Source: Arcobacteraceae bacterium
GTDB lineage: Bacteria > Campylobacterota > Campylobacteria > Campylobacterales > Arcobacteraceae
Reading direction: 5' to 3'
NCBI GenBank assembly: GCA_023138835.1
Contig: JAGLOP010000008.1
Span: 1,149 to 65,148 of the forward strand
Length of the DNA stretch: 64,000 nt
The notes under the pieces are model-generated. The model was not told the origin of the DNA. It did not search any database and saw only the letters and a list, made by a program, of their open reading frames with translations. The position numbers and the translations under genes were made by a program. This document shows, in pieces, positions 8,669 through 40,312 of the stretch; the stretch's first letter is position 1; each line of letters opens with the position of its first letter.

Positions 8669-8902
8669 ATGTTATCCTTAGTTATCATATTTATATTTAT
8701 ATTATATTTTGTATGCGTCACAGTTAGCGTCACAGTTTTAAGAAATTTAGAAATATTTATTTTAAAATATTTAAGGATAAAATACAGTAGATTCAGAATA
8801 ATCAATTAAATTAAACAAATGTGTCTTAATGATGAAATTTTGTACAAAACTTGTACAGTCTGTTTTTGAAGTCTTATAAAGCTAGTATTTAAGGGGTATA
8901 AG

Positions 8903-9000
8903 TGGCGGACGAGGAGAGATTTGAATGCTTTATTATAGTTCAAAAAGCCCTTAAATAAAGGGATTTATAATTATTAGTTCGTTAGCAACCGACTAGCGAC
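8903..9000 (-). pseudogene. decayed tRNA-Ser-like remnant (23-nt exact 3'-end copy plus degenerate body)
   Basis: 8903-8925 is identical to the acceptor/T-loop end of the tRNA at 49565-49587. Downstream, CCCTTAAATAAAGGG and ..CAACCGACTAGCGAC align loosely with the anticodon and 5' acceptor regions. The T stem is broken. Confidence 0.55.
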
Positions 9001-9009
9001 GAACTATAA

Positions 9010-9033
9010 TGGCACAGTTGTGCCACTTTTTTT
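9010..9033 (+). terminator. intrinsic-terminator-like hairpin
   Basis: TGGCAC-AGTT-GTGCCA followed by C and T7 on the plus strand. It lies just downstream of fic on the minus strand, where the U-tract is poor, so strand assignment is ambiguous. Confidence 0.45.
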
Positions 9034-9071
9034 CATCTTTTTATTAGTGGAATTATGACAATAAATTAAAT

Positions 9072-10214
9072 CTATATTTTTACAATATATCTAATATTTC
9101 TACCCTTACTACCTTCAATTTGTTTAATACATTTTTTTTCTAATAATTCTACTATATCTCTTGATGCAGTAGCAGGAGTTGTATCAGCTATTTTAATATA
9201 TTTTTTTTTACTAAGTCCACCATCAAAGTTTTCACTACCCATATCTAAAATCTTATTTATAACTTTTGTTTGTCTTGCATTTAAATTATCATCTTGATGT
9301 TTATCCCAAAACTTTGTCTTATCTACAATATAGTTTAATGACTTGTGAGCTTCAATAAGTGATATATAAAGAGTATTAAAAAACCATTCACACCAAATAG
9401 TTATATCTAATGGGTTATCTTTTTTTATATAGCCTGTAGTTTGTTCTAAAGCATTATAATAACCTTTTCTATCATCATTGATACTTTGTGACATAGTATA
9501 TAGTTTAGATACTTTTGAGTTTTCTATTTGAGACAATACCATATCAGTTATTGCTCTGGTAATTCTTCCATTACCATCATCAAGTGGATGAATAATTACA
9601 AACCATAAATGAGTAATAGCTGCTTTTAGAAGAGTAGCTGGAGTTTCATTGTACCAATTTATAAAATTATCCATCTCACTTTCTAATATCTCTCTTGGTG
9701 GTGCTTCATAGTAAACTTTTTCTTTCTTCATACTACTTGATACTATTTGCATCTCACCTTCATCTCTAAATGTAGCTACATTTATTTTACTAAAGTTGCT
9801 ATATCCTTTTTCAAACATTGCATGATGCCAACCAAATATTTTTTTTAGAGATAAACCCTCTTCATAATTTGTATTAGAATCTATTAATATATCTACATAG
9901 TTATCTTCTTTTATTTTGTTTTGATAGTTAGTATCTGATTCAAGTCCTAGTTTCTTCTTTATAGAAGATCTCACACTATCTCTATTTAGTATTTCACCTT
10001 CAATAGCACAACTTGAAATAATCTCATTTTCCATTGCTCTAAGTTGAGTTTGTTTAATATTATGATTATCCATTACACTTAGGAAGGCTATTAGTTTTCC
10101 TTGCTCTAAAGTAATCTTTTGAATAAGAGGATCTAGTACTTCTCTATCATAAGTAAAATTTGGATACTCATTATATTGCCATATCCATTGTTGTTTTATT
10201 GTATTATTTTTCAT
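9072..10214 (-). CDS. Fic-domain protein (AMPylase family) with C-terminal winged-helix-like tail
   Basis: Catalytic motif HPLDDGNGRITR matches HxFx(D/E)GNGRxxR. N-terminal SCAIEG fits the auto-inhibitory (S/T)xxxE(G/N) helix. Confidence 0.9.
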   Translation of the reverse strand: MKNNTIKQQWIWQYNEYPNFTYDREVLDPLIQKITLEQGKLIAFLSVMDNHNIKQTQLRAMENEIISSCAIEGEILNRDSVRSSIKKKLGLESDTNYQNKIKEDNYVDILIDSNTNYEEGLSLKKIFGWHHAMFEKGYSNFSKINVATFRDEGEMQIVSSSMKKEKVYYEAPPREILESEMDNFINWYNETPATLLKAAITHLWFVIIHPLDDGNGRITRAITDMVLSQIENSKVSKLYTMSQSINDDRKGYYNALEQTTGYIKKDNPLDITIWCEWFFNTLYISLIEAHKSLNYIVDKTKFWDKHQDDNLNARQTKVINKILDMGSENFDGGLSKKKYIKIADTTPATASRDIVELLEKKCIKQIEGSKGRNIRYIVKI

Positions 10215-10382
10215 ATGATGCTATTTTAACTAATATGATACGAATAGTCAAGTTAATCATCTCATAAATGATATGATTATATATCTTAATAGTCTTATTT
10301 GTTAAAAATTGCAGTTTAGAAAAGTGGTACAAAAAGTATAAAATGGCACAATAATTTTTTTGTTTGTCTAAAGTGATTGAAG

Positions 10383-10478
10383 TGGCGGATGAGGAGAGAT
10401 TTGAAATCTTTAATTTAAATCATAATCCTTTTAACTAAGGGAGATAGAAACTAACTAATTCGCTCACAACCGACTCAT
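10383..10478 (-). pseudogene. decayed tRNA-Ser-like remnant
   Basis: The 23-nt core has one mismatch (C to T), matched by a T in the 5' acceptor-like ..CGACTCATAA. The body aligns roughly 60% with the remnant in islet A. Confidence 0.5.
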
Positions 10479-10483
10479 AACAT

Positions 10484-10511
10484 AAAATGTAGGACAATTG
10501 TCCTACATTTT
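10484..10511. terminator. bidirectional intrinsic terminator downstream of hipA-like gene
   Basis: AAAATGTAGGAC-AATT-GTCCTACATTTT is a perfect 12-bp palindromic stem including A4/T4 flanks. Confidence 0.7.
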
Positions 10512-10549
10512 AATAGTTTTACTTACGGAATTATATAATCAAATAAATA

Positions 10550-12148
10550 TTACATCCAACAAAGAAGTTTTAATTCTTCAACTCTTTTGTTATGAAACTT
10601 TTCTAAAACATCCGCAAATTCAATTGGCTCTTTTGCGGCTTTCCATTCTGGTATTCCTCCAACTTTTTGCATTAATTTCATTTTATAAAAAGGAATATGT
10701 CCTAATTCTCTAATTTCATTTATATATTCAGGTAATATATTTGCATACTTTAGTGCAATATCATTGGCAACTTTTTTAAAATCTAAATGTTTAATATTCA
10801 ATATTTCACATAATCCCTTAAAATCATTTGGTCTTATGTTTTTTTGCTTACCATTAATTTTAAGATGTGAATCATATTTTTTAGTAGTACTATAAAAACC
10901 TGTACAAGCTACATCATATAATGGAGAAAATAATACTTTCTTTTTATCAAATATCAAACTAAGATTTTTTGTATGCATATCTTCATGTTGTATAATAACA
11001 CTATACGCATAGTGTTTTAACAATTCCATTCTCTCTGTTGGAGATATAAGTTCTTTTGCAATTCTTCTAAATAATTTTTCACTAGTTGTATCATACTTTT
11101 TTTCACTTCTTAGTCCCATATAGACAGCAAATGTGGCTTTTGCATACCTATGTACTTTATAGCGATCAAATCTTTTTATTAAATAGTGAAATTCTTGCTC
11201 ATCTGTTTTAATAATTGCAGTATAAGGAACTCTAAATCCAAGTTCATTTTTTGCAAATGACATAAATAAATGTTCATTTAATGATATGTGAGGAAAATAA
11301 GTCTCAAGGTCTTTATTAGATTTTAATTTGCTATAAGGCTTTAGAATATAATTATGAGACTCATCTTCTTTGGAGTATATTACTTTTTCATCAAAATCTA
11401 TATTAACAAGTTTTTTATATTGAAATCCAGATATTCCATCAGTTTGCTTTAGTGATAACTTTGTTAAATCGTGCCCTTCTGGAAATAGATTAATTTCATC
11501 TATATCTATTTTAAAATCATTTAAAATATTTATTCTAGGATTACTTCCTAGCATATCATCAAGAACATTTAAATATGATGGTGCTTTTGATAATTCTTCA
11601 TATGATATATCATCTAATGTTTTAGAAAAATACAAATCACCTATATTATCCTTTAATGTTGTTAGTATAGTAAATTCATCTGCTGTTTGAGAATTAACCT
11701 CTAGAATCTCTCTATTAATTCCTTCAGGAATATTTTCTTCAAAAACCGCAGGTAATTCTTCAAATTTATAAGGTTCTATTAAAATGTCTAATGATGCAAT
11801 ATTTGGAAGTAAATCTACTATATATTGATTAAGGTAATAAAATTCAAATACTTCATCAAGTCTAAATATTATACCAGCAACATTGTTGCCTTTATGTACA
11901 TAGATAAAATCAAATCTTCTATAAAATCTTTCAACATTTTCTACTCTATATTTAGTAGCTGATGCAGCTCCTTCTTGTATAGCTCTTTTATTATCCACTA
12001 GTTCTTTAAGTATTCTTTGTAATTTTCTCGTAAAAGTTCTATTCTTTTTTAAAATATTAATTATTTTACTTAAGTTTAAATATTCTTTTGAGTTTAAAAG
12101 AATATCTAAAACATCTATAGTATCCCTATTTATCTTTATCTTTTTCAT
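10550..12148 (-). CDS. HipA-family Ser/Thr kinase toxin homologue with N-terminal winged-helix/HTH extension
   Basis: HipA catalytic loop QHEDMHTKNLSLIF (D-x-H-x-K-N), 532 aa. The first ~95 aa are an extra basic, helical domain. Confidence 0.85.
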   Translation of the reverse strand: MKKIKINRDTIDVLDILLNSKEYLNLSKIINILKKNRTFTRKLQRILKELVDNKRAIQEGAASATKYRVENVERFYRRFDFIYVHKGNNVAGIIFRLDEVFEFYYLNQYIVDLLPNIASLDILIEPYKFEELPAVFEENIPEGINREILEVNSQTADEFTILTTLKDNIGDLYFSKTLDDISYEELSKAPSYLNVLDDMLGSNPRINILNDFKIDIDEINLFPEGHDLTKLSLKQTDGISGFQYKKLVNIDFDEKVIYSKEDESHNYILKPYSKLKSNKDLETYFPHISLNEHLFMSFAKNELGFRVPYTAIIKTDEQEFHYLIKRFDRYKVHRYAKATFAVYMGLRSEKKYDTTSEKLFRRIAKELISPTERMELLKHYAYSVIIQHEDMHTKNLSLIFDKKKVLFSPLYDVACTGFYSTTKKYDSHLKINGKQKNIRPNDFKGLCEILNIKHLDFKKVANDIALKYANILPEYINEIRELGHIPFYKMKLMQKVGGIPEWKAAKEPIEFADVLEKFHNKRVEELKLLCWM

Positions 12149-12186
12149 TTAAGCTTATCCCGCCATACTTTTATTTTAATTTAAGT

Positions 12187-12197
12187 ATTATATCATA
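12187..12197 (-). promoter_or_regulatory. extended -10 promoter (TGaTATAAT) for the hipA-like gene
   Basis: The minus strand reads TATGATATAAT about 40 nt upstream of ATG 12148. Confidence 0.4.
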
Positions 12198-12410
12198 ATT
12201 TACTTATTTTAGCTACTTTTATTAAAATATTCTTAGCGATTGTCGTGATATGCTTAATTAAGTCAGGTTTTACAATTAATTATTCAGTTTTTCAGGGGTA
12301 CGGATAAAAATTATTCTCGGTACTCGTAGAAAAACCCGTTTTAACTCATAGGTTGGGTATTTGATTGATTTTCAATGTGTTATAAAGGTAGTGTTTATAG
12401 GGGTTATTAG

Positions 12411-12437
12411 TGGCGGACGAGGAGAGATTTGAACTCT
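12411..12437 (-). repeat. attL core (displaced 3' end of tRNA-Ser)
   Basis: TGGCGGACGAGGAGAGATTTGAACTCT is identical to 49565-49591. Confidence 0.9.
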
Positions 12438-12575
12438 TTGGCACTCATACACCTGATAATCGAATAAACACCAGTAAAATCGGGCTTTGTCTCTTATCTA
12501 TTAAGCGGATTTTAATACACAAATGCTTACATCTACCTAAAATCTTGTCAAGCCGACAAAATGGCGGTAAAAACC

Positions 12576-12634
12576 AACTGCACAAAAAACTGCACAAAAT
12601 CATAAACACTAAAAAACTGCACAAATACTGCACA
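12576..12634 (+). promoter_or_regulatory. four direct AACTGCACA/TACTGCACA repeats: candidate integrase arm-type sites
   Basis: Copies at 12576, 12588, 12615 and 12626. Two more in the same orientation at 49465 and 49476 on the other side of the core. Confidence 0.5.
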
Positions 12635-12682
12635 CTTTTTTACAACAATATCATCATCATATTTTTAACACCCGTCTTAACC

Positions 12683-12940
12683 TTTGTCTTAATGTCTCAT
12701 ATACTTTCAAGACACAGAAACAGCCATTTTTAAAGGGTGTATAGTTCTTTGTCTTAGTGTCTCAATACATTGTGTTAGTAATTAATATTCTAAATCTTGC
12801 TTTTTTTATTCTTAGCTTTTTACTTTTAGTTTATTAAAAATCAATAAGACATTAAGACAAACAAATAAAGAGAGTAGTAAAAATCGGGCTTTTCAGTATC
12901 TCAAAAGTGAACTAAAAAAATAAGACATAGATTGAGACAA
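12683..12940. repeat. bipartite GTCTTA-N-GTCTCA repeats, two direct plus two inverted
   Basis: TTTGTCTTAATGTCTCA 12683-12699 and TTTGTCTTAGTGTCTCA 12748-12764. Inverted: TAAGACATTAAGACAAA 12845-12861 and TAAGACATAGATTGAGACAA 12921-12940. Confidence 0.6.
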
Positions 12941-12948
12941 TCAAAAAA

Positions 12949-12962
12949 GTGAGACAAAAAAG
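12949..12962 (+). promoter_or_regulatory. 14-mer GTGAGACAAAAAAG (phage operon-head motif, copy a)
   Basis: 24 nt upstream of ATG 12987. See also copies at 18153, 29984, 40296 and 41937. Confidence 0.5.
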
Positions 12963-12986
12963 ATAAAAAAAAATATAGGATAGATT

Positions 12987-13250
12987 ATGGACAATATAGA
13001 AATACATACAATAGATTACGGGATAGTCAAATCTAAAGATCCATCAAAACATGGACAGACAATAGGACTAAAAACTAGACTTATAATCACACCTCCAACT
13101 GGAGCAAAAAAGATACTAGATTTTGATTATCAAGTGGAAGCTATCAAATATATTAAAGAGACTTATGGAAATAGTACCAATATTGGTAAAACATATCACA
13201 TACTTAGTAATTATAAATTGTATGGGGAAAAAGGCTATCAATGGAAATGA
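12987..13250 (+). CDS. hypothetical phage protein
   Basis: 87-aa ORF with AGGA 7 nt before the ATG. First gene of the terminase operon. Confidence 0.55.
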   Translation: MDNIEIHTIDYGIVKSKDPSKHGQTIGLKTRLIITPPTGAKKILDFDYQVEAIKYIKETYGNSTNIGKTYHILSNYKLYGEKGYQWK

Positions 13251-13771
13251 CACCACCACAAGCTAGAGCATTAGAAATATATTGTGAGAGTGCAACTATT
13301 GAGAATGAATACAAACCAGCTACTTTTAAAGAGATTGAAGAAAAACTAAAAGAAGAGCAAATGCAGGGTTCAAATTCTGCAATACAAAGATGGTCAAAAA
13401 AATTTAACTTTGAGGGTATTCTACAAGCTCAAATACAAATAGTAGTTATTAATGATGAAGATAAAACAACAGAACATAAAGCTTTAGATGTAGTAGTTAA
13501 AAAAAAGTTAGATGCACTACAAGTAAATAATGAATTAACAGATGATTGTTATGAAATTATGGGATTATTTGTTAAGCAAGTAGTAAATAACTATGATAAC
13601 ACTAATATTATAAAAAGAGATGATATTAAAATCATTAAAGATATAGCTACATTTACTGGTGGGCGTGAAGATAAACTACTTGATAGAATTGCTGAAAGTG
13701 GTGGAGATAAAATGACAAGTGAACAACAAATGGAAGAATTCAATGATATTGTCTTGGATATAGAAGAATAG
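13241..13771 (+). CDS. putative terminase small subunit
   Basis: Assigned by position only. It overlaps the large terminase start (TAGTG). 176 aa with an acidic C-terminus. Confidence 0.45.
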   Translation: MEMTPPQARALEIYCESATIENEYKPATFKEIEEKLKEEQMQGSNSAIQRWSKKFNFEGILQAQIQIVVINDEDKTTEHKALDVVVKKKLDALQVNNELTDDCYEIMGLFVKQVVNNYDNTNIIKRDDIKIIKDIATFTGGREDKLLDRIAESGGDKMTSEQQMEEFNDIVLDIEE

Positions 13772-15363
13772 TGTCAGCCACACCAACTTTAAAATTAAAA
13801 ACTGCAAAACATATAGCACCTGAAATATTTACAAATCAAACACCAAAATTACATATAGGATTATTAAATTTTTTGGCGAGTCCTGATAAGTATAAAGTTG
13901 CTGCAATTTTCAGAGGTGCAGGTAAAACAACAGTTGTAACAAAAGTGGATACTTTCTCTTCTATATGGCATGAGCATGAACCTTATCATCAAATATTTTC
14001 AGTAAATGAAAAAAAAGCTAAAAAGTTTTTAAAAGATGTAAAAACTATGATACGAAATGCTATTCGTAAAGGTTATGATATTCAGATTAAAAAGTTTAGA
14101 GGAAAAACAAGAGCAGATGATAAAGACCTTGTTTGGAATGATACTGAAATAGAAGTTGTTGTTGATGGTAAGTTCTTTTGTTATGTTGAAGCATTAGGAG
14201 CTGGTCAAGACCCAAGAGGGGGGTCATTTAATTTTATGAGACCTACATTACAAACATTTGATGATATTGAAAGTAAAAGAGGTCAATACGCAATAACCAG
14301 CAAATCTAATAGAGAAAAATTACTAGAATGGTTTGAGGGAGATTGTTTACCAGCACTAGACCCTATATTTGGTAGAGTTAGATTTATTGGGACAATACTA
14401 CACGAAGATTCATTATTAAGTAATATTTTAAAAGATGATGAGTGGGTGCAATTCATACAACCAATTATTAAAGATGATGGTACAAGTGCATGGAAAGATA
14501 GATTTCCACTCACGGATGAAGATGCCATAAAGAAAAAAGAAGAAATATTCAAAGCTACTGGTAAAGTTGCAAAGATTAGATCCATACAAGCTATAAAAAG
14601 AGGACTTTATAAAAAAGGTCTTCATAATCTATTTTATCAAGAATATTTATGTTTACCTCAAGCTGAAGAAAAGAAACTCTTTAAAAAAGAAATGTTTAAA
14701 TATTATTCTCACATTGAATATGATGACAAGGTAAGCTATTTTAAACTAACTAATGCCTTAGAGCATCAAGAAGTTCCAATTAGAAAACCCAAAAATATAG
14801 TATTAAATGATGGTAAAAAAATAGCTATTGATAATACTATTGTATATAGTACAATGGATTTAGCTACAAAAGATGGTAAAGATAAAACTGTAATTATTAC
14901 TTGTGGATATGACAGTAACAATAATATGTATGTACTGGATATTTCCTATGGAGACTGGACACCATTTGATAAAAGTGTAAATGCAATTAAAGTATATAAA
15001 GAGTTCAAGCCCTTAAAGTTTGGTATTGAAAAGGCTGGTATGCAAAATGACTATTTTTATACTATAGATGAAGCACAAAAAGCAAGTGGTGTTAAGATAC
15101 CAGTTAAAGAATTATCACATGGTGGAATTGCTAAAAATATTAGAATAAAAAATATTCATCCATTATTTATGGTAGGAAAAGTGTTTTTTAATGAGAGTGA
15201 TCCAGCAACATCTATATTAGAAGCACAATTTAATGCTTTTGACCCTGAAGTAGAAGGAAGCAATGATGATTTAATTGATACCTTAGCCTATCAACACCAG
15301 TTTATCAAAGGTAGAACATTTGAAAATGAAGAATATGAAGAAGAAGAGGAGAGTTCATGGTAA
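13771..15363 (+). CDS. terminase large subunit
   Basis: Walker A AAIFRGAGKTTV, Walker B-like LQTFDDIE, GTILHEDS. Nuclease half has MDLATKDGKDKTVI and NDDLIDTLAY. GTG start. Confidence 0.9.
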   Translation: MSATPTLKLKTAKHIAPEIFTNQTPKLHIGLLNFLASPDKYKVAAIFRGAGKTTVVTKVDTFSSIWHEHEPYHQIFSVNEKKAKKFLKDVKTMIRNAIRKGYDIQIKKFRGKTRADDKDLVWNDTEIEVVVDGKFFCYVEALGAGQDPRGGSFNFMRPTLQTFDDIESKRGQYAITSKSNREKLLEWFEGDCLPALDPIFGRVRFIGTILHEDSLLSNILKDDEWVQFIQPIIKDDGTSAWKDRFPLTDEDAIKKKEEIFKATGKVAKIRSIQAIKRGLYKKGLHNLFYQEYLCLPQAEEKKLFKKEMFKYYSHIEYDDKVSYFKLTNALEHQEVPIRKPKNIVLNDGKKIAIDNTIVYSTMDLATKDGKDKTVIITCGYDSNNNMYVLDISYGDWTPFDKSVNAIKVYKEFKPLKFGIEKAGMQNDYFYTIDEAQKASGVKIPVKELSHGGIAKNIRIKNIHPLFMVGKVFFNESDPATSILEAQFNAFDPEVEGSNDDLIDTLAYQHQFIKGRTFENEEYEEEEESSW

Positions 15364-15386
15364 CAATAATTATAAAGTGTTTTTAT

Positions 15387-15418
15387 AAAAAAAACCCCAG
15401 CTAGACTACAAGCTGAGG
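15387..15418 (-). terminator. intrinsic terminator (minus strand)
   Basis: The minus strand reads CCTCAGCT-TGTAGTCT-AGCTGGGG followed by T8. This is an 8-bp stem with one G-U pair. There is no U-tract on the plus strand. Confidence 0.7.
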
Positions 15419-15460
15419 AACAAATAAAGTAGTGTTTTGTATTAACAGATAGCATACTCG

Positions 15461-15553
15461 CTACTTCTTATCTTTCCATTCTCTTAACATAGACAGAATA
15501 TGCCAAGATGCAGGTCCAACAATAGCGATAACTATAGCTTCTCCAATTCCCAT
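15461..15553 (-). CDS. 30-aa hydrophobic peptide (MGIGEAIVIAIVGPASWHILSMLREWKDKK), not in ORF track
   Basis: AAAGGA 5 nt before the ATG. One predicted TM helix plus a basic tail. The dedicated terminator 15387-15418 follows. Confidence 0.45.
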   Translation of the reverse strand: MGIGEAIVIAIVGPASWHILSMLREWKDKK

Positions 15554-15628
15554 AAGGATCCTTTCATAATAAGTCCACCCCATTACCCAGCCTTACTGGT
15601 TGAGAAACCCAAAAAGCTACAACAATAA

Positions 15629-15661
15629 AAAAAGCCCAAACCAGCAAAGGTCTAGGCTTTT
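15629..15661 (-). terminator. possible intrinsic terminator (minus strand)
   Basis: The minus strand reads AGCCTA..(14 nt)..TTGGGCT followed by T7. The stem is imperfect. Confidence 0.35.
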
Positions 15662-15807
15662 CCTATTCTCATTATGAAAGATACATTGGTATCCGCTTTT
15701 CTATCTGTTTTTGTTTTAAGTCTCTTTCACTACAAAAAGACTACACTAGTTTTTTAGCTAACGACTAATTAGAATACTTTCGGAGTAATTCGTATATACA
15801 ATATACC

Positions 15808-15863
15808 TATAGTAAACTTAAAGTTTAGTTATAGTTTAGTTATAGTTTACTTATAGTATTACT
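15808..15863 (+). repeat. five helically phased 11-bp tandem repeats (TATAGTTTAGT family)
   Basis: TATAGTAAACT TAAAGTTTAGT TATAGTTTAGT TATAGTTTACT TATAGTATTACT. Confidence 0.8.
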
Positions 15864-16017
15864 AATGGTTACATTATAATTGGATATTAGTAATAAGCAA
15901 AAGCTTTCTTAGAAGAGCGAAAACAACAAAGTAATAAAATTCCATTACCTGATATTAAAGCTATAAGCACGAAGACTTGTAGGACTTAACGGATAAAATT
16001 AAGATTTTTTTATTTTA

Positions 16018-16044
16018 TTGAGACAAAGATTTTCACTGGGGAAA
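16018..16044 (+). promoter_or_regulatory. orphan copy of both phage motifs (TTGAGACAAAGAT plus TTTCACTGGGGAAA) with no ORF behind
   Basis: A degenerate 14-mer sits directly next to the 14-nt core of the 21-mer. The terminator at 16115-16141 lies ~70 nt downstream. Confidence 0.45.
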
Positions 16045-16114
16045 TTTATATTTTATTTTTTTTAAATTTTTTATATAAAATTGTACATCATCATAGTATA
16101 TACTAAGACTTCAA

Positions 16115-16141
16115 TGGGGTACATACCCCACCCTTTTTTTT
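16115..16141 (+). terminator. intrinsic terminator (plus strand)
   Basis: TGGGGTA-CA-TACCCCA, then CCC and T8. Confidence 0.7.
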
Positions 16142-16559
16142 CTGATGATGTTTAAAAAAGCAGTTCCTAAAAAAGAAAACTTAAGCCAAAAAGCACCAAA
16201 AACACCTTTTAACCTTAAAGTAGTAGCATTTCTTAAACAAATAGCCTTTAAAATTAATCTAAAGTGGTTAATTCTATATACTTTTAACTACTTTAGACCA
16301 TTTTTATCTAATTATCGCAGTATTTCAACTATTTATCACTTTCAATCAATTTGTCTTAAAATCTTAGTGGGATGGGATAAAAATCTGAAATATCCCATCA
16401 TCTCAACCCATACCGTAGCTTAACTCACTATTTGTTTTTTTAAAAATGTTTTCGTGCTTAGGGCTTGTAGTAGTAAGTAAGATAAAGGTTAGAAAATCGC
16501 CCCTTGGTGATGATAGTGATAATTTGCTGAAGCAAATTAAGATTGTCCCAGTTATGGTG

Positions 16560-16685
16560 TTAAGGTTTGATTATTAGAAGTATATCGTTGCATTTAACAC
16601 CTAAGATGATAGTTGCGAGTAAAAAGCCTGTAATGAAAACTAAGAAGTATTTTAGTGGTTGAGATAATCTGATCAAAAAGTTCAT
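16560..16685 (-). CDS. 41-aa hydrophobic peptide, not in ORF track
   Basis: The ATG immediately follows the stop of the preceding small ORF (TAGATG). Sequence MNFLIRLSQPLKYFLVFITGFLLATIILGVKCNDILLIIKP. Confidence 0.3.
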   Translation of the reverse strand: MNFLIRLSQPLKYFLVFITGFLLATIILGVKCNDILLIIKP

Positions 16686-16814
16686 CTATCTTTTTATATT
16701 CATATAGGCATTATTAATATTTTTAAGAACTTTTACATATTCATTGTTAGCAGTACATCCATTGAAAAGAAATAATATAAAAATTAATAGTATCTTTTTA
16801 TTTATCCACTTCAA
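16686..16814 (-). CDS. 42-aa putative lipoprotein, not in ORF track
   Basis: TTG start 9 nt after GGAG. MKWINKKILLIFILFLFNGC is a signal peptide with Cys. It overlaps the 3' end of 16798-17217. Confidence 0.35.
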   Translation of the reverse strand: MKWINKKILLIFILFLFNGCTANNEYVKVLKNINNAYMNIKR

Positions 16815-17217
16815 TATCTCTATCTCCTATCTTATAGTTTAAATAAATATTCCAGTAAGGTTTTTTATGTGGTTTAAATTCTTGATACTCTTCTTTTGTA
16901 AGATTATCTATAAATTGAGAATATTGACTAATCATCTTTTCTTTAGTATCTTTAAGCTGCTCTTTTTGATACATATTGTATTGACCATATAAAAGTAATA
17001 CTGAAACAGCTAAACTTATTCCTACTTCTTTATAGTCATATTCGGTATGACTATATTTAGCTACTAAAAATCTAATAAAACAAGTTCCGAGTATATAAAT
17101 GATAGCTAAATAAGAATTTACCATCATTAATATAAAAGTAAATAAAATAAATAACCAAAACTTTACTCTTGGTATTTCATTCTTTATAATTGATGCATCA
17201 AATTCTTTATCAGTCAT
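16798..17217 (-). CDS. prophage membrane protein (3 TM plus coiled-coil tail)
   Basis: 139 aa. Hydrophobic helices at about aa 20-45 and 65-85. Starts 4 nt after the HTH gene. Confidence 0.6.
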   Translation of the reverse strand: MTDKEFDASIIKNEIPRVKFWLFILFTFILMMVNSYLAIIYILGTCFIRFLVAKYSHTEYDYKEVGISLAVSVLLLYGQYNMYQKEQLKDTKEKMISQYSQFIDNLTKEEYQEFKPHKKPYWNIYLNYKIGDRDIEVDK

Positions 17218-17221
17218 ATTT

Positions 17222-17452
17222 CTATCTATTATCTTTAATCATATCTTGTACCGCAATAAGCTTTTTGATTTTATCTATGTCTAAATTATTCTTTTTACAA
17301 AATGAACCCAGCTTTACTACTTCAATTAATTTAGGTTGTTTGGATGACCATCCAGCTATTGTACTATAGCTTTTACCTGTATATTCTACTATATCGTTAT
17401 TATTTATATCTTTCATAGTTGATATGATACCTAAAAAACCTTTAACTATCAA
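17222..17452 (-). CDS. small HTH DNA-binding protein (repressor-like)
   Basis: DIVEYTGKSYSTIAGWSS is HTH-like. It diverges from the ParAB operon across an operator-rich spacer. Track start is TTG 17452; ATG 17416 is an alternative. Confidence 0.55.
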   Translation of the reverse strand: MIVKGFLGIISTMKDINNNDIVEYTGKSYSTIAGWSSKQPKLIEVVKLGSFCKKNNLDIDKIKKLIAVQDMIKDNR

Positions 17453-17558
17453 ATAAGAAATAAATATTTATTAATATTTCTTATTTGATATATGATTAAG
17501 CTACTCTTTATATTTCTTATGTGATAATTCTTTAAATAAATATTTCATATAAGAAATA
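17450..17558. promoter_or_regulatory. four copies of the 13-mer TATTTCTTATNTG arranged as two inverted pairs (operators)
   Basis: CAAATAAGAAATA 17450-17462 pairs with TATTTCTTATTTG 17475-17487. TATTTCTTATGTG 17511-17523 pairs with CATATAAGAAATA 17546-17558. Confidence 0.6.
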
Positions 17559-17572
17559 AAGAAAGGCACAAA

Positions 17573-17761
17573 ATGAAAACATACAAAACCCACTACCCAC
17601 ATAAGTTAAATAAACAGTTCGCAATAAAACAAAATCGTACTAGTGGTGTAGGTAGAACATTATGCAGCAATCGGTTTGAACAGGACTATACTTTAGATAT
17701 AGACAAAGTAACTTGTGAAAAATGTTTAATGAAACTAAAAAATAAAGGACAAACAAAATGA
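17573..17761 (+). CDS. hypothetical phage protein, Cys-containing (possible zinc ribbon)
   Basis: 62 aa with GAAAGG 7 nt before the ATG. Contains C..(17)..CEKC. Confidence 0.5.
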   Translation: MKTYKTHYPHKLNKQFAIKQNRTSGVGRTLCSNRFEQDYTLDIDKVTCEKCLMKLKNKGQTK

Positions 17762-17871
17762 AAATAAAAGTATTCAACAAAAACGGCAAAAGCAGAGTAA
17801 TATATGCACATAGTGAAAATCATATATCAAAAATAGCAATTAAATTTGAAAGATGGGAATGGGTAAGATGA
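17758..17871 (+). CDS. 37-aa ORF, not in track, ATGA-coupled on both sides
   Basis: ATGA overlaps at 17758-17761 and 17868-17871. AAGGA upstream. Confidence 0.3.
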   Translation: MKIKVFNKNGKSRVIYAHSENHISKIAIKFERWEWVR

Positions 17872-18152
17872 GTACAGATAAAAAATTAATTGATGAACTG
17901 TATCAAGAAATAAATGAATTAAAAAAGCAACAACAGACTATCAAAGAAGAAAATCTAAACTATGTCAATCAGTTTTCAGCATTATCTTGTGATGTTCAAG
18001 GTGTCGCAAATTTAGTACATGGACTTGTACACTTTCAAGATATGAATAAACAAATGTTTACAAACTCTTGTGGAGTATTAAGTCGTAGTTTGGAAGATAT
18101 TAGTGCAAGTATGGAAGCTAGTGCAAATGGCGATAGTCATTTTGTAGGATAG
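17853..18152 (+). CDS. hypothetical phage protein (coiled-coil N-terminus)
   Basis: 99-aa ORF. ATG 17868, coupled to the previous stop, is a likely true start. Confidence 0.5.
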   Translation: MGMGKMSTDKKLIDELYQEINELKKQQQTIKEENLNYVNQFSALSCDVQGVANLVHGLVHFQDMNKQMFTNSCGVLSRSLEDISASMEASANGDSHFVG

Positions 18153-18211
18153 TTGAGACAAAAAAGCAAATTATACGGATTAAACTACTGATAAAACTTT
18201 CACGGGGGAAA
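18153..18211 (+). promoter_or_regulatory. 14-mer TTGAGACAAAAAAG (18153-18166) plus 21-mer ATAAAACTTTCACGGGGGAAA (18191-18211)
   Basis: Both motifs lie directly in front of ATG 18211. Confidence 0.5.
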
Positions 18212-18567
18212 TGATGAAAACATACAGAACACTAAGAGCAAGTACAGATGATAGAAGAAAAGTTATCATAAAAGAATTAAATCTTAGAAAAATAGATAAA
18301 GAAACACGAGCAAAAATTCATGAAGATATAACACTGGACTATTATAAAATCATTACGATTTTATCTCATCTATCAATGAAAACTACAAAGATGGTAGTCC
18401 ACAATAATGTTGAATATATTAAACAATTAGATACACCATTAAAAGATGGTAGTAAATCAAATGCTAGATTTTTAACACAAAAAGAAATCCAAAAGCTAAA
18501 TAGAGATTTAAAAATTTGTGTAATAGTACCACCAACAAAAATATATGAACTTAAAAAGGTAGGATAG
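18211..18567 (+). CDS. hypothetical phage protein upstream of parA
   Basis: 118-aa basic ORF. Its frame is open through the 21-mer. Confidence 0.55.
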   Translation: MMKTYRTLRASTDDRRKVIIKELNLRKIDKETRAKIHEDITLDYYKIITILSHLSMKTTKMVVHNNVEYIKQLDTPLKDGSKSNARFLTQKEIQKLNRDLKICVIVPPTKIYELKKVG

Positions 18568-18571
18568 TAGT

Positions 18572-19201
18572 ATGGAAGTTATAGTAGTAGCCCACTCAAA
18601 AGGTGGAACTGGAAAGTCCACCATCATTTGGAACTTAGCACACTTCATAAGAAGTTTGGATAAACCAACAATCATTATAGATTTAGACTTCCAGCAAACA
18701 CAACATTATCTACATAGAATTAGAACATTAGAAGGCTTAACCAATCCACAAAATGATATTCCAGTATTTAGACCACAAACAGCAGATGCACTAATTAATA
18801 CATTAGAAAACTTTAGTGATCATTATATACTTATAGATGTAGGTGGATATGATAATGATATAAATCGTATAGCTATCAGCTGGGCAGATAAGATAGTAGT
18901 ACCTTTATCAGATAGTATTACAGATGTATTAGGATTTAAAACATTTGAAAATATATTAAAAGAGATAGACAATCCTTTTATAAACATAGTCCTAAACAAC
19001 ATCCACCCACTCACAAAGAACTTTAACACCATAAAAGAAGCCATAGGTTCAAATGAAGATATCAAACTATTAGACACAGTTATCAGAACTAGAAAAATAT
19101 ACAAAACTACAATGGGAGAAGGTAAATCAGTATTTGATATCAACCACACAGTGGCACAAGATGAAATAAAAGGATTATATTATGAAATTATCAGCAATTG
19201 A
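18572..19201 (+). CDS. parA: ParA/Soj-type partition ATPase
   Basis: Deviant Walker A VVAHSKGGTGKST. 209 aa. Confidence 0.9.
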   Translation: MEVIVVAHSKGGTGKSTIIWNLAHFIRSLDKPTIIIDLDFQQTQHYLHRIRTLEGLTNPQNDIPVFRPQTADALINTLENFSDHYILIDVGGYDNDINRIAISWADKIVVPLSDSITDVLGFKTFENILKEIDNPFINIVLNNIHPLTKNFNTIKEAIGSNEDIKLLDTVIRTRKIYKTTMGEGKSVFDINHTVAQDEIKGLYYEIISN

Positions 19202-20588
19202 TGAAGTAACAAAAGACACTACTAGAACAACTGGAGTAAGTCCATTTATGGAACTACAGCTGGAGTTAGTTTATCCAAATCCAAATCAACCAAGAAAACT
19301 CTTTGATAAAGTAAAGTTACAAGAACTAGCTAACAGTATTGAAACACATGGGCTATTAGAGCCAATAGTTGTAGTTAAAGATGATAATGGTAAATACATG
19401 ATAATAGCCGGAGAGAGAAGATACAAAGCTTCACTATTAAATGATGCAAGAACTATAAAAACTCACATCATCAAAGCTGATATAAAAAAGGTGCAAGAGT
19501 TAGCATTGATAGAAAATATCCAAAGAGATGATTTAACAGATTATGAGATAGCAAAACATATAGGTAAGTTATGGGATACTGGTGACTATGATAGAAAAAA
19601 AGATTTAGCAGATGTTATTGGTAAATCAGATACATATTTAAGTCGTGTATTATCTGTATTAAAATTAGATGAACATATCATTAGTCAAATTGAAAGACAT
19701 AATCTAACTATATCTTTATCTGTACTAGATGAAATTTCACGAGTGAAAGATGTAAAACTGCAAAATATGGCTTTTAATGATTATCTTGATGGAAAGATTA
19801 AAAGAGATGATATTAAGCATATTAAAAATAGAACTAAAGAAGTTCCTGAATTGTGGGAAAAGGTGGAAGATAAAAAACCAAAGAAACTAAATAGAGCTGG
19901 AGAACTTGAAGCTAATGTTTGGTTTTTGGATGGATTAAAAGTATTAAATCAAGAAGAAGTTGTTTCAAAACTAGAAACAAATAAGCATTATAAATATAGT
20001 ATAAAAAAAACAACTACACTGCATAGTCATATTTTAGAAGATGAAAATGGCATAACCTTTCAATTTATTGCTACTGAAGAAAATATAAAAGCACTAAAAG
20101 GCAAAAGTATCTTAGAAGATTTTAGTAAAGAGATGTCACTTAATAATATATATACAATGACAATAGATATAAATAGTAAAAGAGGTATGTTTGAAAAAAA
20201 AGATTATTTAAGTTCTCTAGCTTGTACAAATGAAAATGGCAGAACATGGGTAATTTGTACCGAGGGTGACTTTGAGGGAACTCTTGAAATAACAAAAGGT
20301 AAAGAGCTTATTAAAAATTGCTCTAATCATTGTTATGAAGTTATTTTAAAAGAGATTGATAAAGAACCGCAAATAGAAAATGATGATGAAACTGTAAGAG
20401 ATATACTTATCAAAAAAAGTAAAATAAAGAATTTAACATCAAAAGTAAAATCATTTGATAATTGTACTGTTAGCAACGATAAAGATAAAACTATTTTTAA
20501 TCCTGAAAATGGATTAAAAATCACAGTAAATGTAAGAGATTTGTTTTTAGCAAGTAAAAAATACAAAATATATTTTGAGGAGATATAA
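19182..20588 (+). CDS. parB: ParB-like partition/nuclease-domain protein with long C-terminal extension
   Basis: ParB N-domain LLEPIVVVKDDNGKYMIIAGERRYKAS and LIENIQRDDLTDYEIA. Overlaps parA. Confidence 0.85.
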   Translation: MKLSAIDEVTKDTTRTTGVSPFMELQLELVYPNPNQPRKLFDKVKLQELANSIETHGLLEPIVVVKDDNGKYMIIAGERRYKASLLNDARTIKTHIIKADIKKVQELALIENIQRDDLTDYEIAKHIGKLWDTGDYDRKKDLADVIGKSDTYLSRVLSVLKLDEHIISQIERHNLTISLSVLDEISRVKDVKLQNMAFNDYLDGKIKRDDIKHIKNRTKEVPELWEKVEDKKPKKLNRAGELEANVWFLDGLKVLNQEEVVSKLETNKHYKYSIKKTTTLHSHILEDENGITFQFIATEENIKALKGKSILEDFSKEMSLNNIYTMTIDINSKRGMFEKKDYLSSLACTNENGRTWVICTEGDFEGTLEITKGKELIKNCSNHCYEVILKEIDKEPQIENDDETVRDILIKKSKIKNLTSKVKSFDNCTVSNDKDKTIFNPENGLKITVNVRDLFLASKKYKIYFEEI

Positions 20589-20590
20589 TC

Positions 20591-20713
20591 ATGAACGAAA
20601 TATCAACAACTGGAATTATTCTATTTATCTTATTTATAGGAATTATGGCTTACATAACATATAAAGAAAATCAATTACATAAAGACAAAACACCATTTAA
20701 AAAGGAACTATAA
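20591..20713 (+). CDS. 40-aa single-TM peptide, not in track
   Basis: MNEISTTGIILFILFIGIMAYITYKENQLHKDKTPFKKEL, with GAGGAG upstream. Fills the gap between parB and the recombinase. Confidence 0.4.
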   Translation: MNEISTTGIILFILFIGIMAYITYKENQLHKDKTPFKKEL

Positions 20714-20714
20714 A

Positions 20715-21299
20715 ATGGCACGACCAAAAAACACAAAAAAAGACAGACTACCAATTATGGAATATGAATACAACCAAATAGTATTTAAAACAAAACATGA
20801 TAAAGCTATGAAATCAGTAACCAAAAGAAAACTACTTCGTGCTTATGGATTATTATATTGCTTTGGTGCAAGGATATCAGAAATCACAAACTTTACACTT
20901 GATGATCTAAACTTTATCTATATGCATAAATACATCATACTTACAGATACCAAATCAAATGCAACACAAAGACTGATTATAAATGACAAAGCCATAGAGA
21001 TACTAAAAAGCTTAGATTATAGTGATTGTGAAGATGCACTATTTTACAGACCAAACACCACAACACCTATGAATATTGGTGGACTTGAAAAACTTATCAA
21101 TACCCACCTAAAACACCAGTTAAATGTATTATATACAACTCATAGCTTCCGTGCCGGTTACATCACTAGAATACTTGAAGCAACAGGTAATCCAAAAATA
21201 GCACAAAAACTAGCACGACACAAAGATATTATCACAACATTAAGATATAGTGGTGCAAGTGATAGACAAATAGATGATGCTTTGGATAAGATATTTTAA
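20715..21299 (+). CDS. small tyrosine recombinase (catalytic domain only, 194 aa)
   Basis: GARISEI (box I Arg), HSFRAGYIT (H-x-x-R), LARHKDIITTLRYS (His/Tyr). Confidence 0.8.
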   Translation: MARPKNTKKDRLPIMEYEYNQIVFKTKHDKAMKSVTKRKLLRAYGLLYCFGARISEITNFTLDDLNFIYMHKYIILTDTKSNATQRLIINDKAIEILKSLDYSDCEDALFYRPNTTTPMNIGGLEKLINTHLKHQLNVLYTTHSFRAGYITRILEATGNPKIAQKLARHKDIITTLRYSGASDRQIDDALDKIF

Positions 21300-21337
21300 G
21301 CTGTCCTTTAGTGTAAAATATATATACTGTTGTCAAC

Positions 21338-21409
21338 GGGGTATTAGCTCAGCGGTAGAGCGGTGAGTTTCTAACTCATGCGTCGTCGGTTCGAATCCGA
21401 TATACTCCA
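21338..21409 (+). tRNA. tRNA-Arg(UCU), phage-borne
   Basis: GGGGTAT/ATACTCC acceptor, GCTC-AGCGGTA-GAGC D arm, GTGAG-TTTCTAA-CTCAT anticodon arm, GTCGG-TTCGAAT-CCGAT T arm. No encoded CCA. Confidence 0.9.
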
Positions 21410-21445
21410 CTTAAGTCCCTCTCGGGGGGATTTCTAATTTAGTTA

Positions 21446-23482
21446 TCAAAAATCAAACTTAGCTTTTTTAAAATTAAAAGTTTTATCATCACCACTCAAA
21501 TCAAAACCAACTCTTTTACCAGCCTTTTTAATTTTTCGTGCAGTATCATCATATTCTTTTTGATTTTCTTTTTTGTCTCTACTTTTTGATTTATCTTTAA
21601 ACTTCTTTAGATTTTTAGCTTCTTTAAGCCTTGAACTTAACTCTTTTTTCTCATTAAATCTTCGTACACCAACACCACGACCACCAAGTTCAGCAAAACT
21701 CATATCTTCTTTATAATAATTCTTTTGCTCTATACCCATAAGCTTTTTACTAAACCTTTGACCATACCTACCAAATGTAAGTGGTGGCAAATAGTTTTCA
21801 GCCATAGTCAATATCTTCTTACCAGCTTTAATATGACTTTCATCATACTTACCGCTTATGTTATAACCAAGTGGAGTTTTACCACTAGCAATATTAACCA
21901 TACCACCAACAAAACCAAATCCAGTATCAAAACTTATATCAATACCACCAAACTTCATAGCTGGTATCATTCTTCCTAAGTTCATATACCAGCTACCACC
22001 AACATTAACCCACTCTTTAGCACCAAATAAGTTAGCTTGATTTTTAGCCCAAATAGGTTTAAGTAAATCTTCTTCACTAGAACTATTATCTAGCCAACTA
22101 CTAGCACCAGCTCCCAGTAATGCAGTTTGAAGTAAAGCATATCGTACTGGATGTTTAGCTATCACTTTCATAGTAGCTGGAGTTGCTTTATATACATAGT
22201 GCATAAATGGAAATAATCCACTTTTATCAATAGTCCGTACAAAATCAGGCAACGGAGTAGAATAATCAACATAAACTTCACTCGCCTTTTTAAAAGCATC
22301 TTTTTCAGCTACTCCATCATCCATCAATCTTTTAAATGAAGCAACTTTAAAAAGCTTATCTTCCCAGTCATAAAGCTTTCTTATTTTATCTCCAGCTTTA
22401 CTACCTTGTGCAAGATATAAGTTCTTAACGATACTTAGTCCAACATTGATTTTCTTTTTATCAGTTATGTGTACATCAATATCTTCAAAATCTTTTAGAC
22501 TACTATTCAATCCATATTTATTAGCAGTATCAACCAGCTTTTTAAACTTCTTAGGATTTTTAACTTTCATATACATCACTTGACCCAATGCAATCAAATC
22601 TCCATTAAGTCCAGCCAACATAACATTACTACCGATATTGTATAAATGTGTTACTGGATTTTTAACTGTAACATTCACTTTGATATGATCTATTACTGGA
22701 AACCAATACTTTTCCATTATTCCAAGTGTCTCACGAGCTAGTTGTGAACTCTTTAAACTATTAGATATCTCTTTTGGTACATATTTACCAGCTAAAGCAC
22801 CATACTTATAAACTCCACCATTAGTCTCATTAGATATTTTTACACTATTTTCAAACTCTTCATCTTTAGCAAACTTATCGGCTATACTTTTAAGTACACT
22901 AGCTTTAAGTATTTGAGTTCTTTGTTCAGCAAGTGTCTTAGGTATTACAACACTGGCATCTTCAATCATACTCATAGCTATTCTCTCATCATGAGTTAAA
23001 TTTTTTCTTTTCTTAAATTTCTTATCAAAAAAGATTTTACCCATCAATCCTTTTTCATTTAAATAAGCAGCATAATATCTTTTTAGATAATCTTTGATTT
23101 TACTCTTAGATTTTAATGCACCAAGTTTAACTAACTCATCAGCATTATTATCTATTTTTGCTCTCATTTTCTCATATAAGGGTTTTAACTCTTTAGGTAG
23201 CTTCAATGAACTCATATCACCATTTAAAGCTTGTACTAGCATCTCACTTTCATTTGGTAGCAGTTCATCAGCTAAATGCTTTTGAATATCTCCAGCTTGT
23301 TCATATATATCCCCTAAAGCTATTTGATATTCTTTTATACTTTCAGCAAAATCCTTTTGCATCTTAGTAGTTGTAAGTATATTATACTTATCAAACTCAT
23401 TTAGCTTATCTCCCATCTTAGAAAATATCTTATCAATACTATCATCTAATTTTACAGTTGCTTTTTTTATTCCACAATTCAT
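21446..23482 (-). CDS. large virion-module protein of unknown function (678 aa, very basic C-terminus)
   Basis: Starts 1 nt after the stop of the 2149-aa gene. No motif recognised. Confidence 0.7.
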   Translation of the reverse strand: MNCGIKKATVKLDDSIDKIFSKMGDKLNEFDKYNILTTTKMQKDFAESIKEYQIALGDIYEQAGDIQKHLADELLPNESEMLVQALNGDMSSLKLPKELKPLYEKMRAKIDNNADELVKLGALKSKSKIKDYLKRYYAAYLNEKGLMGKIFFDKKFKKRKNLTHDERIAMSMIEDASVVIPKTLAEQRTQILKASVLKSIADKFAKDEEFENSVKISNETNGGVYKYGALAGKYVPKEISNSLKSSQLARETLGIMEKYWFPVIDHIKVNVTVKNPVTHLYNIGSNVMLAGLNGDLIALGQVMYMKVKNPKKFKKLVDTANKYGLNSSLKDFEDIDVHITDKKKINVGLSIVKNLYLAQGSKAGDKIRKLYDWEDKLFKVASFKRLMDDGVAEKDAFKKASEVYVDYSTPLPDFVRTIDKSGLFPFMHYVYKATPATMKVIAKHPVRYALLQTALLGAGASSWLDNSSSEEDLLKPIWAKNQANLFGAKEWVNVGGSWYMNLGRMIPAMKFGGIDISFDTGFGFVGGMVNIASGKTPLGYNISGKYDESHIKAGKKILTMAENYLPPLTFGRYGQRFSKKLMGIEQKNYYKEDMSFAELGGRGVGVRRFNEKKELSSRLKEAKNLKKFKDKSKSRDKKENQKEYDDTARKIKKAGKRVGFDLSGDDKTFNFKKAKFDF

Positions 23483-23483
23483 C

Positions 23484-29933: not shown

Positions 29934-29983
29934 AAGATAAACTCCTCTACTATAGTTTATCTTATGTTATTATTTTATTTTTT

Positions 29984-29997
29984 CTTTTTTGTCTCAC
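29984..29997 (-). promoter_or_regulatory. 14-mer GTGAGACAAAAAAG (copy d) upstream of the giant gene
   Basis: In the 70-nt gap, 50 nt before ATG 29933. Confidence 0.5.
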
Positions 29998-30003
29998 TTT
30001 TTG

Positions 30004-30606: not shown

Positions 30607-30608
30607 AA

Positions 30609-30875: not shown

Positions 30876-30885
30876 TTTATATCCT

Positions 30886-32622: not shown

Positions 32623-32625
32623 TTT

Positions 32626-33623: not shown

Positions 33624-33625
33624 TT

Positions 33626-34572: not shown

Positions 34573-34584
34573 ATTAATCCTTTC

Positions 34585-38228: not shown

Positions 38229-38237
38229 AACTTTTAC

Positions 38238-39170: not shown

Positions 39171-39202
39171 ATTATGTCCTTTGTTTTATATTATTCGTTT
39201 TA

Positions 39203-40309: not shown

Positions 40310-40312
40310 TAT

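Follow-up and report, generated by a model that had tools for sequence, protein, structure and literature searches.

Two integrase-less single-gene islets stacked beside a prophage at tRNA-Ser(GCT) of an Arcobacteraceae bacterium, probably through successive integration

We analysed 64,000 nucleotides of an Arcobacteraceae bacterium (GenBank assembly GCA_023138835.1, contig JAGLOP010000008.1; metagenome-assembled scaffold ZHAN22-2_SAMN18200495), referred to below as the window. It contains a tandem array in which two small islets, A and B, and a prophage are separated by copies of the 3' end of tRNA-Ser(GCT). The islets measure 1.5 kb (A) and 2.0 kb (B) and hold one gene apiece, a Fic gene in A and a HipA-family kinase gene in B. 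The array probably arose by successive site-specific integrations at an attachment (att) site in the T-loop of tRNA-Ser(GCT), which would have left A and B as two integrase-less islets of the cis-mobilisable element (CIME) type.

The 23-nt 3' end of tRNA-Ser(GCT), CCA included, is present four times in direct orientation in the window, where no copy would be expected by chance. This core, TGGCGGACGAGGAGAGATTTGAA, is the reverse complement of the last 23 nt of the tRNA, and all copies lie on the plus strand (8903–8925, 10383–10405, 12411–12433 and 49576–49598); the second differs by one mismatch, C to T at 10390. ARAGORN recognised a real tRNA at only one of the four copies, the rightmost. Read from the left, the order is flank F, core, islet A, core, islet B, core, prophage and tRNA, with cores 1 and 2 bounding the Fic islet, cores 2 and 3 the kinase islet, and cores 3 and 4 the prophage. 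Because an integrase gene adjoins the tRNA and phage genes fill the interval between cores 3 and 4, the core can be regarded as a working att site. The GC content of the islets (26–27%) is similar to that of the flanking chromosome. An earlier note on this DNA, made from the sequence alone, had described tRNA-Ser 3'-end cores and a layout common to both islets (core, arm, hairpin, single minus-strand gene and promoter region); both descriptions were reproduced here.

The points at which identity with the tRNA breaks off were compared between the core copies, including those of a third islet from another metagenome-assembled genome (MAG), described below as L013. In islets A and B and in the L013 islet, identity ends after ..ATTTGAA, where the T-loop meets the 5' strand of the T-stem, and in the prophage copy it extends 4 nt further (CTCT). 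Beyond the end of identity, all four non-tRNA copies (A, B, the L013 islet and the prophage) read NNCTTT, and the tRNA reads CTCTCGG. The T-loop is a known crossover sublocation for tRNA-targeting integrases (bioRxiv 10.1101/2020.11.02.365908), and these breakpoints would fit integrases that cross over there. The T-stem half-site beside the core is degenerate in both islets, reading TGCTT in A and ATCTT in B versus CTCTC in the tRNA.

From the core to the stop codon of the cargo gene, a stretch of about 146 nt, the two islets are homologous throughout. The core-adjacent arms are identical at 88 of 143 aligned positions (61.5%; z = 8.8 against shuffled sequences), and none of 3000 shuffles attained their alignment score, which bears out the homology claimed in the earlier note. 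The homologous arms include the CAACCGACT and CCTT..AAGGG blocks, and the strong hairpins reported earlier were recovered at the end of both. Since this arm is common to both islets, A and B would derive from one element lineage. The far arms, on the promoter side of the cargo genes, are non-homologous except for a short end resembling flank F. Weakly (z = 4.3), the far arm of B resembles the tRNA promoter region in inverted orientation, but AT-rich noise is the likely cause. The cores themselves are identical at 22 of 23 positions; at the divergence of the arms, one difference or none in 23 nt would have a probability of 2e-4, and the cores must therefore have been either constrained or freshly supplied. 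Such conservation would be expected if separately diverged elements had each been obliged to match the tRNA, and it argues against the decay of a duplication in place.

According to the earlier note, about 75 nt beside each core form a decayed tRNA-Ser-like body. We found no support for this, or for tRNA mimicry by the arms as judged from their sequences. Local alignment of the bodies to the real tRNA-Ser body was insignificant against shuffles (p = 0.43 for A, 0.21 for B), and core-anchored global alignment gave p = 0.30 (A) and 0.10 (B), compared with 0.25 and 0.18 for the arms of the prophage and of L013, used as controls. ARAGORN predicted no tRNA gene at 8903–9010 or 10383–10490, and Rfam yielded no tRNA-family match across 8400–13000 at E ≤ 10. 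For the two bodies together, RNAalifold returned three pairs (-1.95 kcal/mol, zero covariation) and no consensus fold, where covariation is no judge of structural conservation since only two arm sequences are known. A T in the body of B, said to mirror the mutation in its core, amounts to a 5-nt complementarity (CTCAT/ATGAG) without a counterpart in A, and no evidence of compensation was seen. The proposal that the bodies are decayed tandem tRNA-Ser genes or functional tRNA mimics, the cargo merely lying between old tRNA genes, can draw on this pairing of CTCAT with the mutated core and on a CCCTT..AAGGG hairpin about as far from the core as a tRNA anticodon stem, which we grade as anecdotal. 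Against it stand the insignificant similarity in both kinds of alignment, the lack of ARAGORN and Rfam matches and the lack of a fold common to A and B. Remnants of ordinary tandem tRNA genes, which the earlier note had expected in all relatives if they were the source of the bodies, are equally hard to reconcile with the relatives: none has tandem tRNA-Ser genes, and the eight related MAGs each carry a single tRNA-Ser(GCT). The proposal is extremely improbable and close to refuted.

Islet A contains one credible open reading frame (ORF), 9072–10214 on the minus strand. Its product combines a DUF4172 and a Fic domain and matches a solved Fic structure (8cil_A) with E 6.5e-91. The translation keeps HPLDDGNGRITR, which we take to be the catalytic Fic motif (HxFx(D/E)GNGRxxR type), and SCAIEG, presumably the inhibitory-helix motif. 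The PADLOC SoFic model covers residues 34–377, nearly the full length, with E 7.8e-34, in agreement with the earlier assignment of a single minus-strand Fic gene to a toxin- or defence-type family. The islet gene resembles SoFic, a single-gene anti-phage defence (bioRxiv 10.1101/2022.05.11.491447; PMC12249575), in this near full-length match, in both motifs and in standing alone. It differs in scoring far below the cut-off of the NCBIfam SoFic equivalog NF046030 (35.7 bits versus 550) and in the lack, within islet A, of a small ORF further downstream that would correspond to the 47-aa AS1 of E. coli.

The gene of islet B encodes a HipA-family Ser/Thr kinase of 532 aa. GISGFQYKK, EDMHTKN and PLYD in its translation are presumably the P-loop and the catalytic motifs of a kinase. 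Among solved structures, HipT kinases are nearest (HipT(Lp) in the PDB, E 9e-18). In common with HipBA, HipBST and YjjJ/HipH, the kinase has a HipA_C domain above the Pfam threshold (E 4e-33; 115.2 bits versus a gathering score of 30.5). Unlike HipBA and HipBST it is a single gene without a HipB or HipS partner, and the ORF list contains no small partner or antitoxin ORF in either islet. Similarity to YjjJ is weak (26 bits versus a cut-off of 401). The earlier designation of the gene as HTH-HipA stands as far as a single minus-strand ORF with a HipA_C kinase domain is concerned; its other half was not confirmed, as Pfam detected no helix-turn-helix (HTH) domain in the N-terminus (residues 1–100). 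Only for distant homologues do precomputed Pfam annotations list such domains (HTH_11 and HTH_24).

Both cargo genes behave as promoter-plus-gene modules, with promoters of about 90–120 nt and sharp homology borders (9063–10303 for Fic, 10542–12271 for HipA), which recur at 82–93% DNA identity in unrelated chromosomal contexts of other Campylobacterota. The Fic homologues (L023–L025; 87–89% protein identity) share 84–87% DNA identity with the window, limited to 9063–10303. For the HipA homologues (L018–L022; protein identities of 93, 85 and 82%) DNA identity is 82–93%, limited to 10542–12271, and the common segment consists of the gene, 8 nt past its stop codon and about 120 nt of promoter. 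More distant homologue loci (L026–L029) come from Aliarcobacter butzleri and from an element with a resolvase. Neighbouring genes differ at all twelve Fic and HipA homologue loci, none of which contains a core-like sequence (up to five errors) or a detectable arm; ARAGORN found no tRNA in the ten of these loci that were scanned. A fixed link between cargo and scaffold is thus not supported, and the homologues appear to share gene and promoter only.

No recombinase ORF or remnant was found within 8903–12410, where Fic and HipA are the only Pfam domains. A tblastn search with two integrases gave no match better than E = 2 within the islets, and no remnant lies left of 8903 either. The ORF list and the tblastn search thereby confirm the earlier claim that neither islet encodes a recombinase. 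The neighbouring 37-kb prophage encodes a tyrosine integrase whose gene ends 60 nt from the tRNA; a small ORF upstream of this gene (48138–48386) is a possible excisionase. Exact copies of AACTGCACAAA occur in the 64 kb at the prophage ends only: three at the left end, and a single one, accompanied by a degenerate copy, at the right end (49465–49486). These repeats are probably arm-type integrase sites. Neither islet contains a AACTGCACAAA copy with up to two mismatches. Because the repeats are absent from the islets and the T-stem half-site is degenerate in A and B, mobilisation of the islets by this prophage, which the earlier note had considered, appears disfavoured.

The exact core was found in 11 stretches of a species-representative genome collection. 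Ten are of Campylobacterota type and one is an unrelated tRNA-Ser(CGA). Of the ten, eight are contigs on which tRNA-Ser(GCT) occurs once, and the other two are L013, which terminates at the core, and L011, whose sequence overlaps that of L013. Record titles differ among them, with Helicobacter given for L007 and Desulfosporosinus for L017. A close relative, L012 (contig CBDETN010000027.1), is 96% identical to the window over pyrF and the tRNA. This 491-kb contig carries one exact core, and there is no core-like sequence in the 7.4 kb downstream of tRNA-Ser, on which ground we regard the islets as absent from it. In their place, an inovirus-type prophage (L012 1–7433; integrase, GPA-type Rep, secretin and Zot) lies beside the tRNA, with an integrase 34% identical to that of the window. 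The 72 nt between this integrase gene and the tRNA are 88% identical to window 8830–8902, that is, to flank F, and also resemble 12366–12410, the end of the far arm of B. The homology with flank F does not extend leftward into the 3' end of the integrase gene (p = 0.56). F-like flanks also lie beside tRNA-Ser in L009, L011/L013 and L015; those of L009 and L015 are shorter and adjoin host genes.

A third islet of like build, with a mazF/mazE cargo, is located at the same tRNA in MAG191 (L013). Its degenerate core carries a 2-nt insertion and follows a host membrane-protein gene, and its right side consists of about 160 nt of unique sequence (presumed promoter), a 100-nt F-like flank and an exact core. 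An overlap of exactly 127 nt joins L013 to L011, whose sequence leads on into the real tRNA, so that the islet runs from L013 770–1777 to L011 1–190. Both contigs break at ..GAACTCT, the point where the prophage junction of the window diverges from the tRNA. Agreement of the L013 arm with the A/B profile is confined to the core and the next 27 nt or so.

Table 1. Features of the tRNA-Ser(GCT) array in the window and of the comparable islet at L013 (window coordinates unless L013 is given)
Feature	Position	Strand	Evidence
Flank F, downstream of tRNA 3' end, left of most distal core; contains TTGTACAAAACTTGTACAG and ..ATTTAAGGGGTATAAG	8830..8902	.	88% identity to L012 integrase-to-tRNA spacer
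att core 1, displaced tRNA-Ser 3' end (acceptor 3' strand, T-stem 3' strand, T-loop, CCA)	8903..8925	-	exact 23-mer
Islet A core-adjacent arm ("body" and hairpin)	8926..9062	.	homologous to B arm; not at other Fic loci; not tRNA-like
Terminator-like hairpin followed by T7, islet A arm end	9010..9025	+	hairpin/terminator scan
Fic gene, DUF4172 + Fic, SoFic-like	9072..10214	-	Pfam; PADLOC SoFic; PDB 8cil_A
Fic promoter region; TTGACT, 17 nt, TAAAAT at 10251-10223	10215..10303	-	promoter scan; conserved with gene in L023-L025
Islet A far arm, 79 nt; two TGG[T/C]ACAA repeats, weakly F-like end	10304..10382	.	not common to other Fic loci
att core 2, C to T at 10390	10383..10405	-	23-mer search; A-B junction spanned by Logan contig L006
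Islet B core-adjacent arm, with hairpin	10406..10541	.	homologous to A arm; not at other HipA loci
Terminator-like hairpin, 13 bp, islet B arm end	10483..10512		hairpin/terminator scan
HipA-family Ser/Thr kinase gene, 532 aa	10550..12148	-	Pfam HipA_C; PDB HipT(Lp); ORF list
HipA promoter region, conserved with gene	12149..12271	-	identity to L018-L022
Islet B far arm, 139 nt; last ~45 nt (12366-12410) resemble flank F	12272..12410	.	alignment
att core 3, distal att site of prophage; 27-nt identity with tRNA	12411..12437	-	core search, tRNA comparison
Prophage, 37 kb: TerL, portal/adaptor, major head protein, tail fibre, primase, ParAB, integrase	12434..49575	.	PHROGs, ORF map
Three exact AACTGCACAAA repeats	12576..12625	+	repeat search
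Tyrosine integrase, 379 aa, ends 60 nt from tRNA	48376..49515	+	Pfam Phage_integrase E 1.4e-21; PHROG integrase E 2e-63
Intact tRNA-Ser(GCT), 3' 23 nt = att core 4	49576..49665	-	ARAGORN
L013 degenerate core TGGCGGACGAGGAGAGA[GG]TTTGAA, 2-nt insertion, after host membrane-protein gene	L013 770		sequence comparison
L013 arm, ~125 nt, starts AACTTTA, ends in hairpin TTTACACAGATTGTGTAAA	after L013 core		sequence
L013 mazF, PemK_toxin E 2e-24, with overlapping upstream small ORF (mazE)	920-1258 (mazF)	-	Pfam

Searches for the arm elsewhere recovered no further copy. The core followed by CAACCGACT had no match in IMG/VR viral contigs or in JGI metagenome contigs; likewise, the core alone was not found in IMG/VR viral contigs, nor the core followed by NNCTTT in JGI metagenome contigs. 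When the arms were compared by blastn with GenBank phages and PLSDB plasmids, the outcome was either nothing or chance-level matches of 31–34 nt to Riemerella phages (E 0.6), and an nhmmer profile of the arm, run against all collected loci, matched A and B alone. A wider family built on the core-plus-body-plus-hairpin unit, as envisaged in the earlier note, was accordingly not recovered, the unit being absent from all collections searched.

The succession of integrations that we favour would have proceeded as follows. Tyrosine integrases would cross over at the T-loop of tRNA-Ser(GCT), and each integration would rebuild the tRNA with a 3' end borne by the element, displacing the earlier 3' end outward. 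Islet A would have entered before islet B, and the prophage last, with A and B coming from one lineage of tRNA-Ser-targeting elements that had diverged before arrival. Each islet would keep one self-contained promoter-and-gene module, a SoFic-like Fic AMP-transferase or a HipA-family kinase, whose arm hairpin may act as terminator and insulator; these modules would also circulate independently in Campylobacterota. On their own the islets would be immobile; a compatible integrase might at best move them in cis or in trans. The analysis itself demonstrates the core repeats, the homology of the arms, what the cargo genes are, the lack of a recombinase, the lack of the islets in relatives and the prophage with its integrase. 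We infer in what sequence the elements arrived, that the islets descend from elements which once had an integrase, and any mobility or defensive role that they may have today.

Several observations weigh against this succession of integrations. No integrase-bearing parent with A/B-type arms turned up in any collection searched. The islets are free of pseudogene debris and their far arms are only 79 and 139 nt long, a tidier state than random deletion would usually leave. In L012 the stop codon of the integrase gene directly abuts the F-like flank, and flank F may thus be either native or element-borne. Support for the junctions is uneven as well: an independent Logan assembly (k=31), made from the same run, has a contig, L006, that spans core 2 with both flanks, but its contigs stop at or inside cores 1, 3 and 4, and those junctions are supported by one assembly. 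Given the lack of debris and the short far arms, the islets may have been small from the start rather than decayed from larger elements. The CIME-like reading of the earlier note stands in its structural part, as the islets are att-bounded, integrase-less and built on one scaffold; as to derivation by decay, neither a parent in the collections searched nor pseudogene remnants in the islets were found.

The clean architecture, without integrase remnants, is also what would be expected of miniature single-gene cassettes that were never larger, carried a dedicated att scaffold and were handled in trans by a phage or inovirus integrase, tRNA-Ser serving as an integron-like platform. One scaffold with two different cargoes, cores much better conserved than arms, the analogous single-module islet that carries mazEF at this tRNA in a different MAG, and two distant integrases adjoining this tRNA-Ser, that of the window (with the core as att) and that of L012, would all suit such cassettes. 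Yet the arms were found nowhere else in the collections searched, with the L013 arm departing from them shortly beyond its core, and the cargo homologues elsewhere never come with the scaffold. The arm repeats of the resident integrase are missing from A and B, whose T-stem half-sites are degenerate; the 2-nt insertion in the left core of L013 makes that islet look fixed in place, and no circular or empty-site junctions of the islets were observed. Such cassettes are unlikely. A broader proposition is decidedly unlikely: in Arcobacteraceae, the T-loop att site of tRNA-Ser(GCT) would be a platform for miniature integrase-less cassettes with a single toxin or defence module (Fic, HipA, MazEF), a promoter of their own and a short dedicated att arm. 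Phage or inovirus integrases acting in trans would insert and stack them and might also export them, so that genes would be gathered in integron-like fashion at a tRNA attachment site. Alternatively, unequal crossing-over between cores could have duplicated one islet in place, with subsequent divergence, replacement of one cargo gene and no second integration. The arm, gene orientation and layout common to A and B would follow from this, and the sharp borders of the cargo modules show them to be exchangeable units. Divergence in place should, however, have degraded the cores as much as the arms, unless gene conversion with the tRNA preserved them, and the far arms of A and B have nothing in common save the short F-like end. 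We consider this duplication very unlikely.

Integrase-less, att-flanked remnants accreted at a tRNA are a concept already described, both as CIMEs and as partial-tRNA arrays. The definition of CIMEs and an accretion model for tandems comprising ICEs (integrative and conjugative elements), IMEs (integrative and mobilisable elements) and CIMEs have been published (PMC5704250), as has the stacking of partial tRNAs and degenerate elements at tRNA islands (bioRxiv 10.1101/2020.12.28.424599). Like the CIMEs related to ICESt1 and ICESt3 of Streptococcus thermophilus (PMC5704250), the islets have direct repeats of attL/attR type, lack genes for integration or transfer and lie in tandem with a functional integrative element. 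Unlike them, they are much smaller, with one gene each, their neighbour is a prophage rather than an ICE, no parent was found, and the arm repeats of the neighbour are absent. They share with the tycheposon islands of Prochlorococcus (bioRxiv 10.1101/2020.12.28.424599) the division of elements by partial tRNAs, the outward displacement of older elements by newer ones and the persistence of integrase-less fragments, and the ssrA islands of Dehalococcoides (PMC3146451) would fall into the same class of tRNA-proximal islands formed by repeated integration. In contrast to such islands, which contain ill-defined debris, the present islets each consist of one intact gene module, sharply delimited by att sites, and have an arm in common, and host (Arcobacteraceae) and target (tRNA-Ser GCT) differ as well. 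In consisting of single genes, some from toxin families, with a repeated recombination-site unit between them, the array also recalls integron cassettes. Here, however, the repeat is a tRNA 3' end and not attC, the arms of A and B have no conserved palindromic fold, and the genes, each behind its own promoter, face away from the platform. In addition, the ORFs examined in and near the array include no integron-type integrase, only the phage-type tyrosine integrase and a 194-aa integrase-like ORF.

If the islets did accrete through successive integration, they would form a clean small-scale example of a tRNA hotspot that gathers stand-alone defence or toxin genes by repeated integration, while Fic and HipA modules of promoter and gene shift between contexts in Campylobacterota. 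Mobility in trans would make the islets a minimal, att-only means of carrying single defence genes. At present the array is an additional example and introduces no new principle.

Further observations concern the surroundings of the array and the assembly. Left of the islets, window 4581–8575 looks accessory: it contains an RHS/YD-shell toxin tip (4581–6269), an ankyrin-repeat protein (6843–7760), an AraC-type regulator (7847–8575) and a 182-aa ORF of a type that recurs farther upstream on the scaffold. Beyond 107 nt beside the tRNA, L012 has nothing in common with this region. The ends of the Logan contigs correspond to window positions 8924 (end of L003), 12437 (start of L006) and 49580 (start of L001). 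That contigs end at the cores may be due to branching of the assembly graph, if some cells carried the elements and others lacked them; the register of the ends is inconsistent, and one contig is also broken within the Fic gene.

Within the prophage, the 194-aa integrase-like ORF (20715–21299) adjoins a tRNA-Arg(TCT) gene (20715–21410 region). At 21446–29933, a 2149-aa ORF lies beside a 678-aa ORF with a weak match to a virion-RNA-polymerase PHROG, and the ParA/ParB genes are found at 18572–20588, a combination that is unusual for an integrated phage. Repeats were also seen near two of the HipA homologues. In L018, three copies of GTGTCCAAGTGTGACCG (5003–5065) directly follow the 93%-identical homologue and precede a PemK-type toxin gene. 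In L020, five copies of CCTTTAGTTAAACTGTCCACAAACT, about 110 nt apart (7396–7865), lie upstream of the homologue, near a TnpB/OrfB_IS605-type gene and a gene for a 1047-aa protein with a faint AAA_19 Pfam match.

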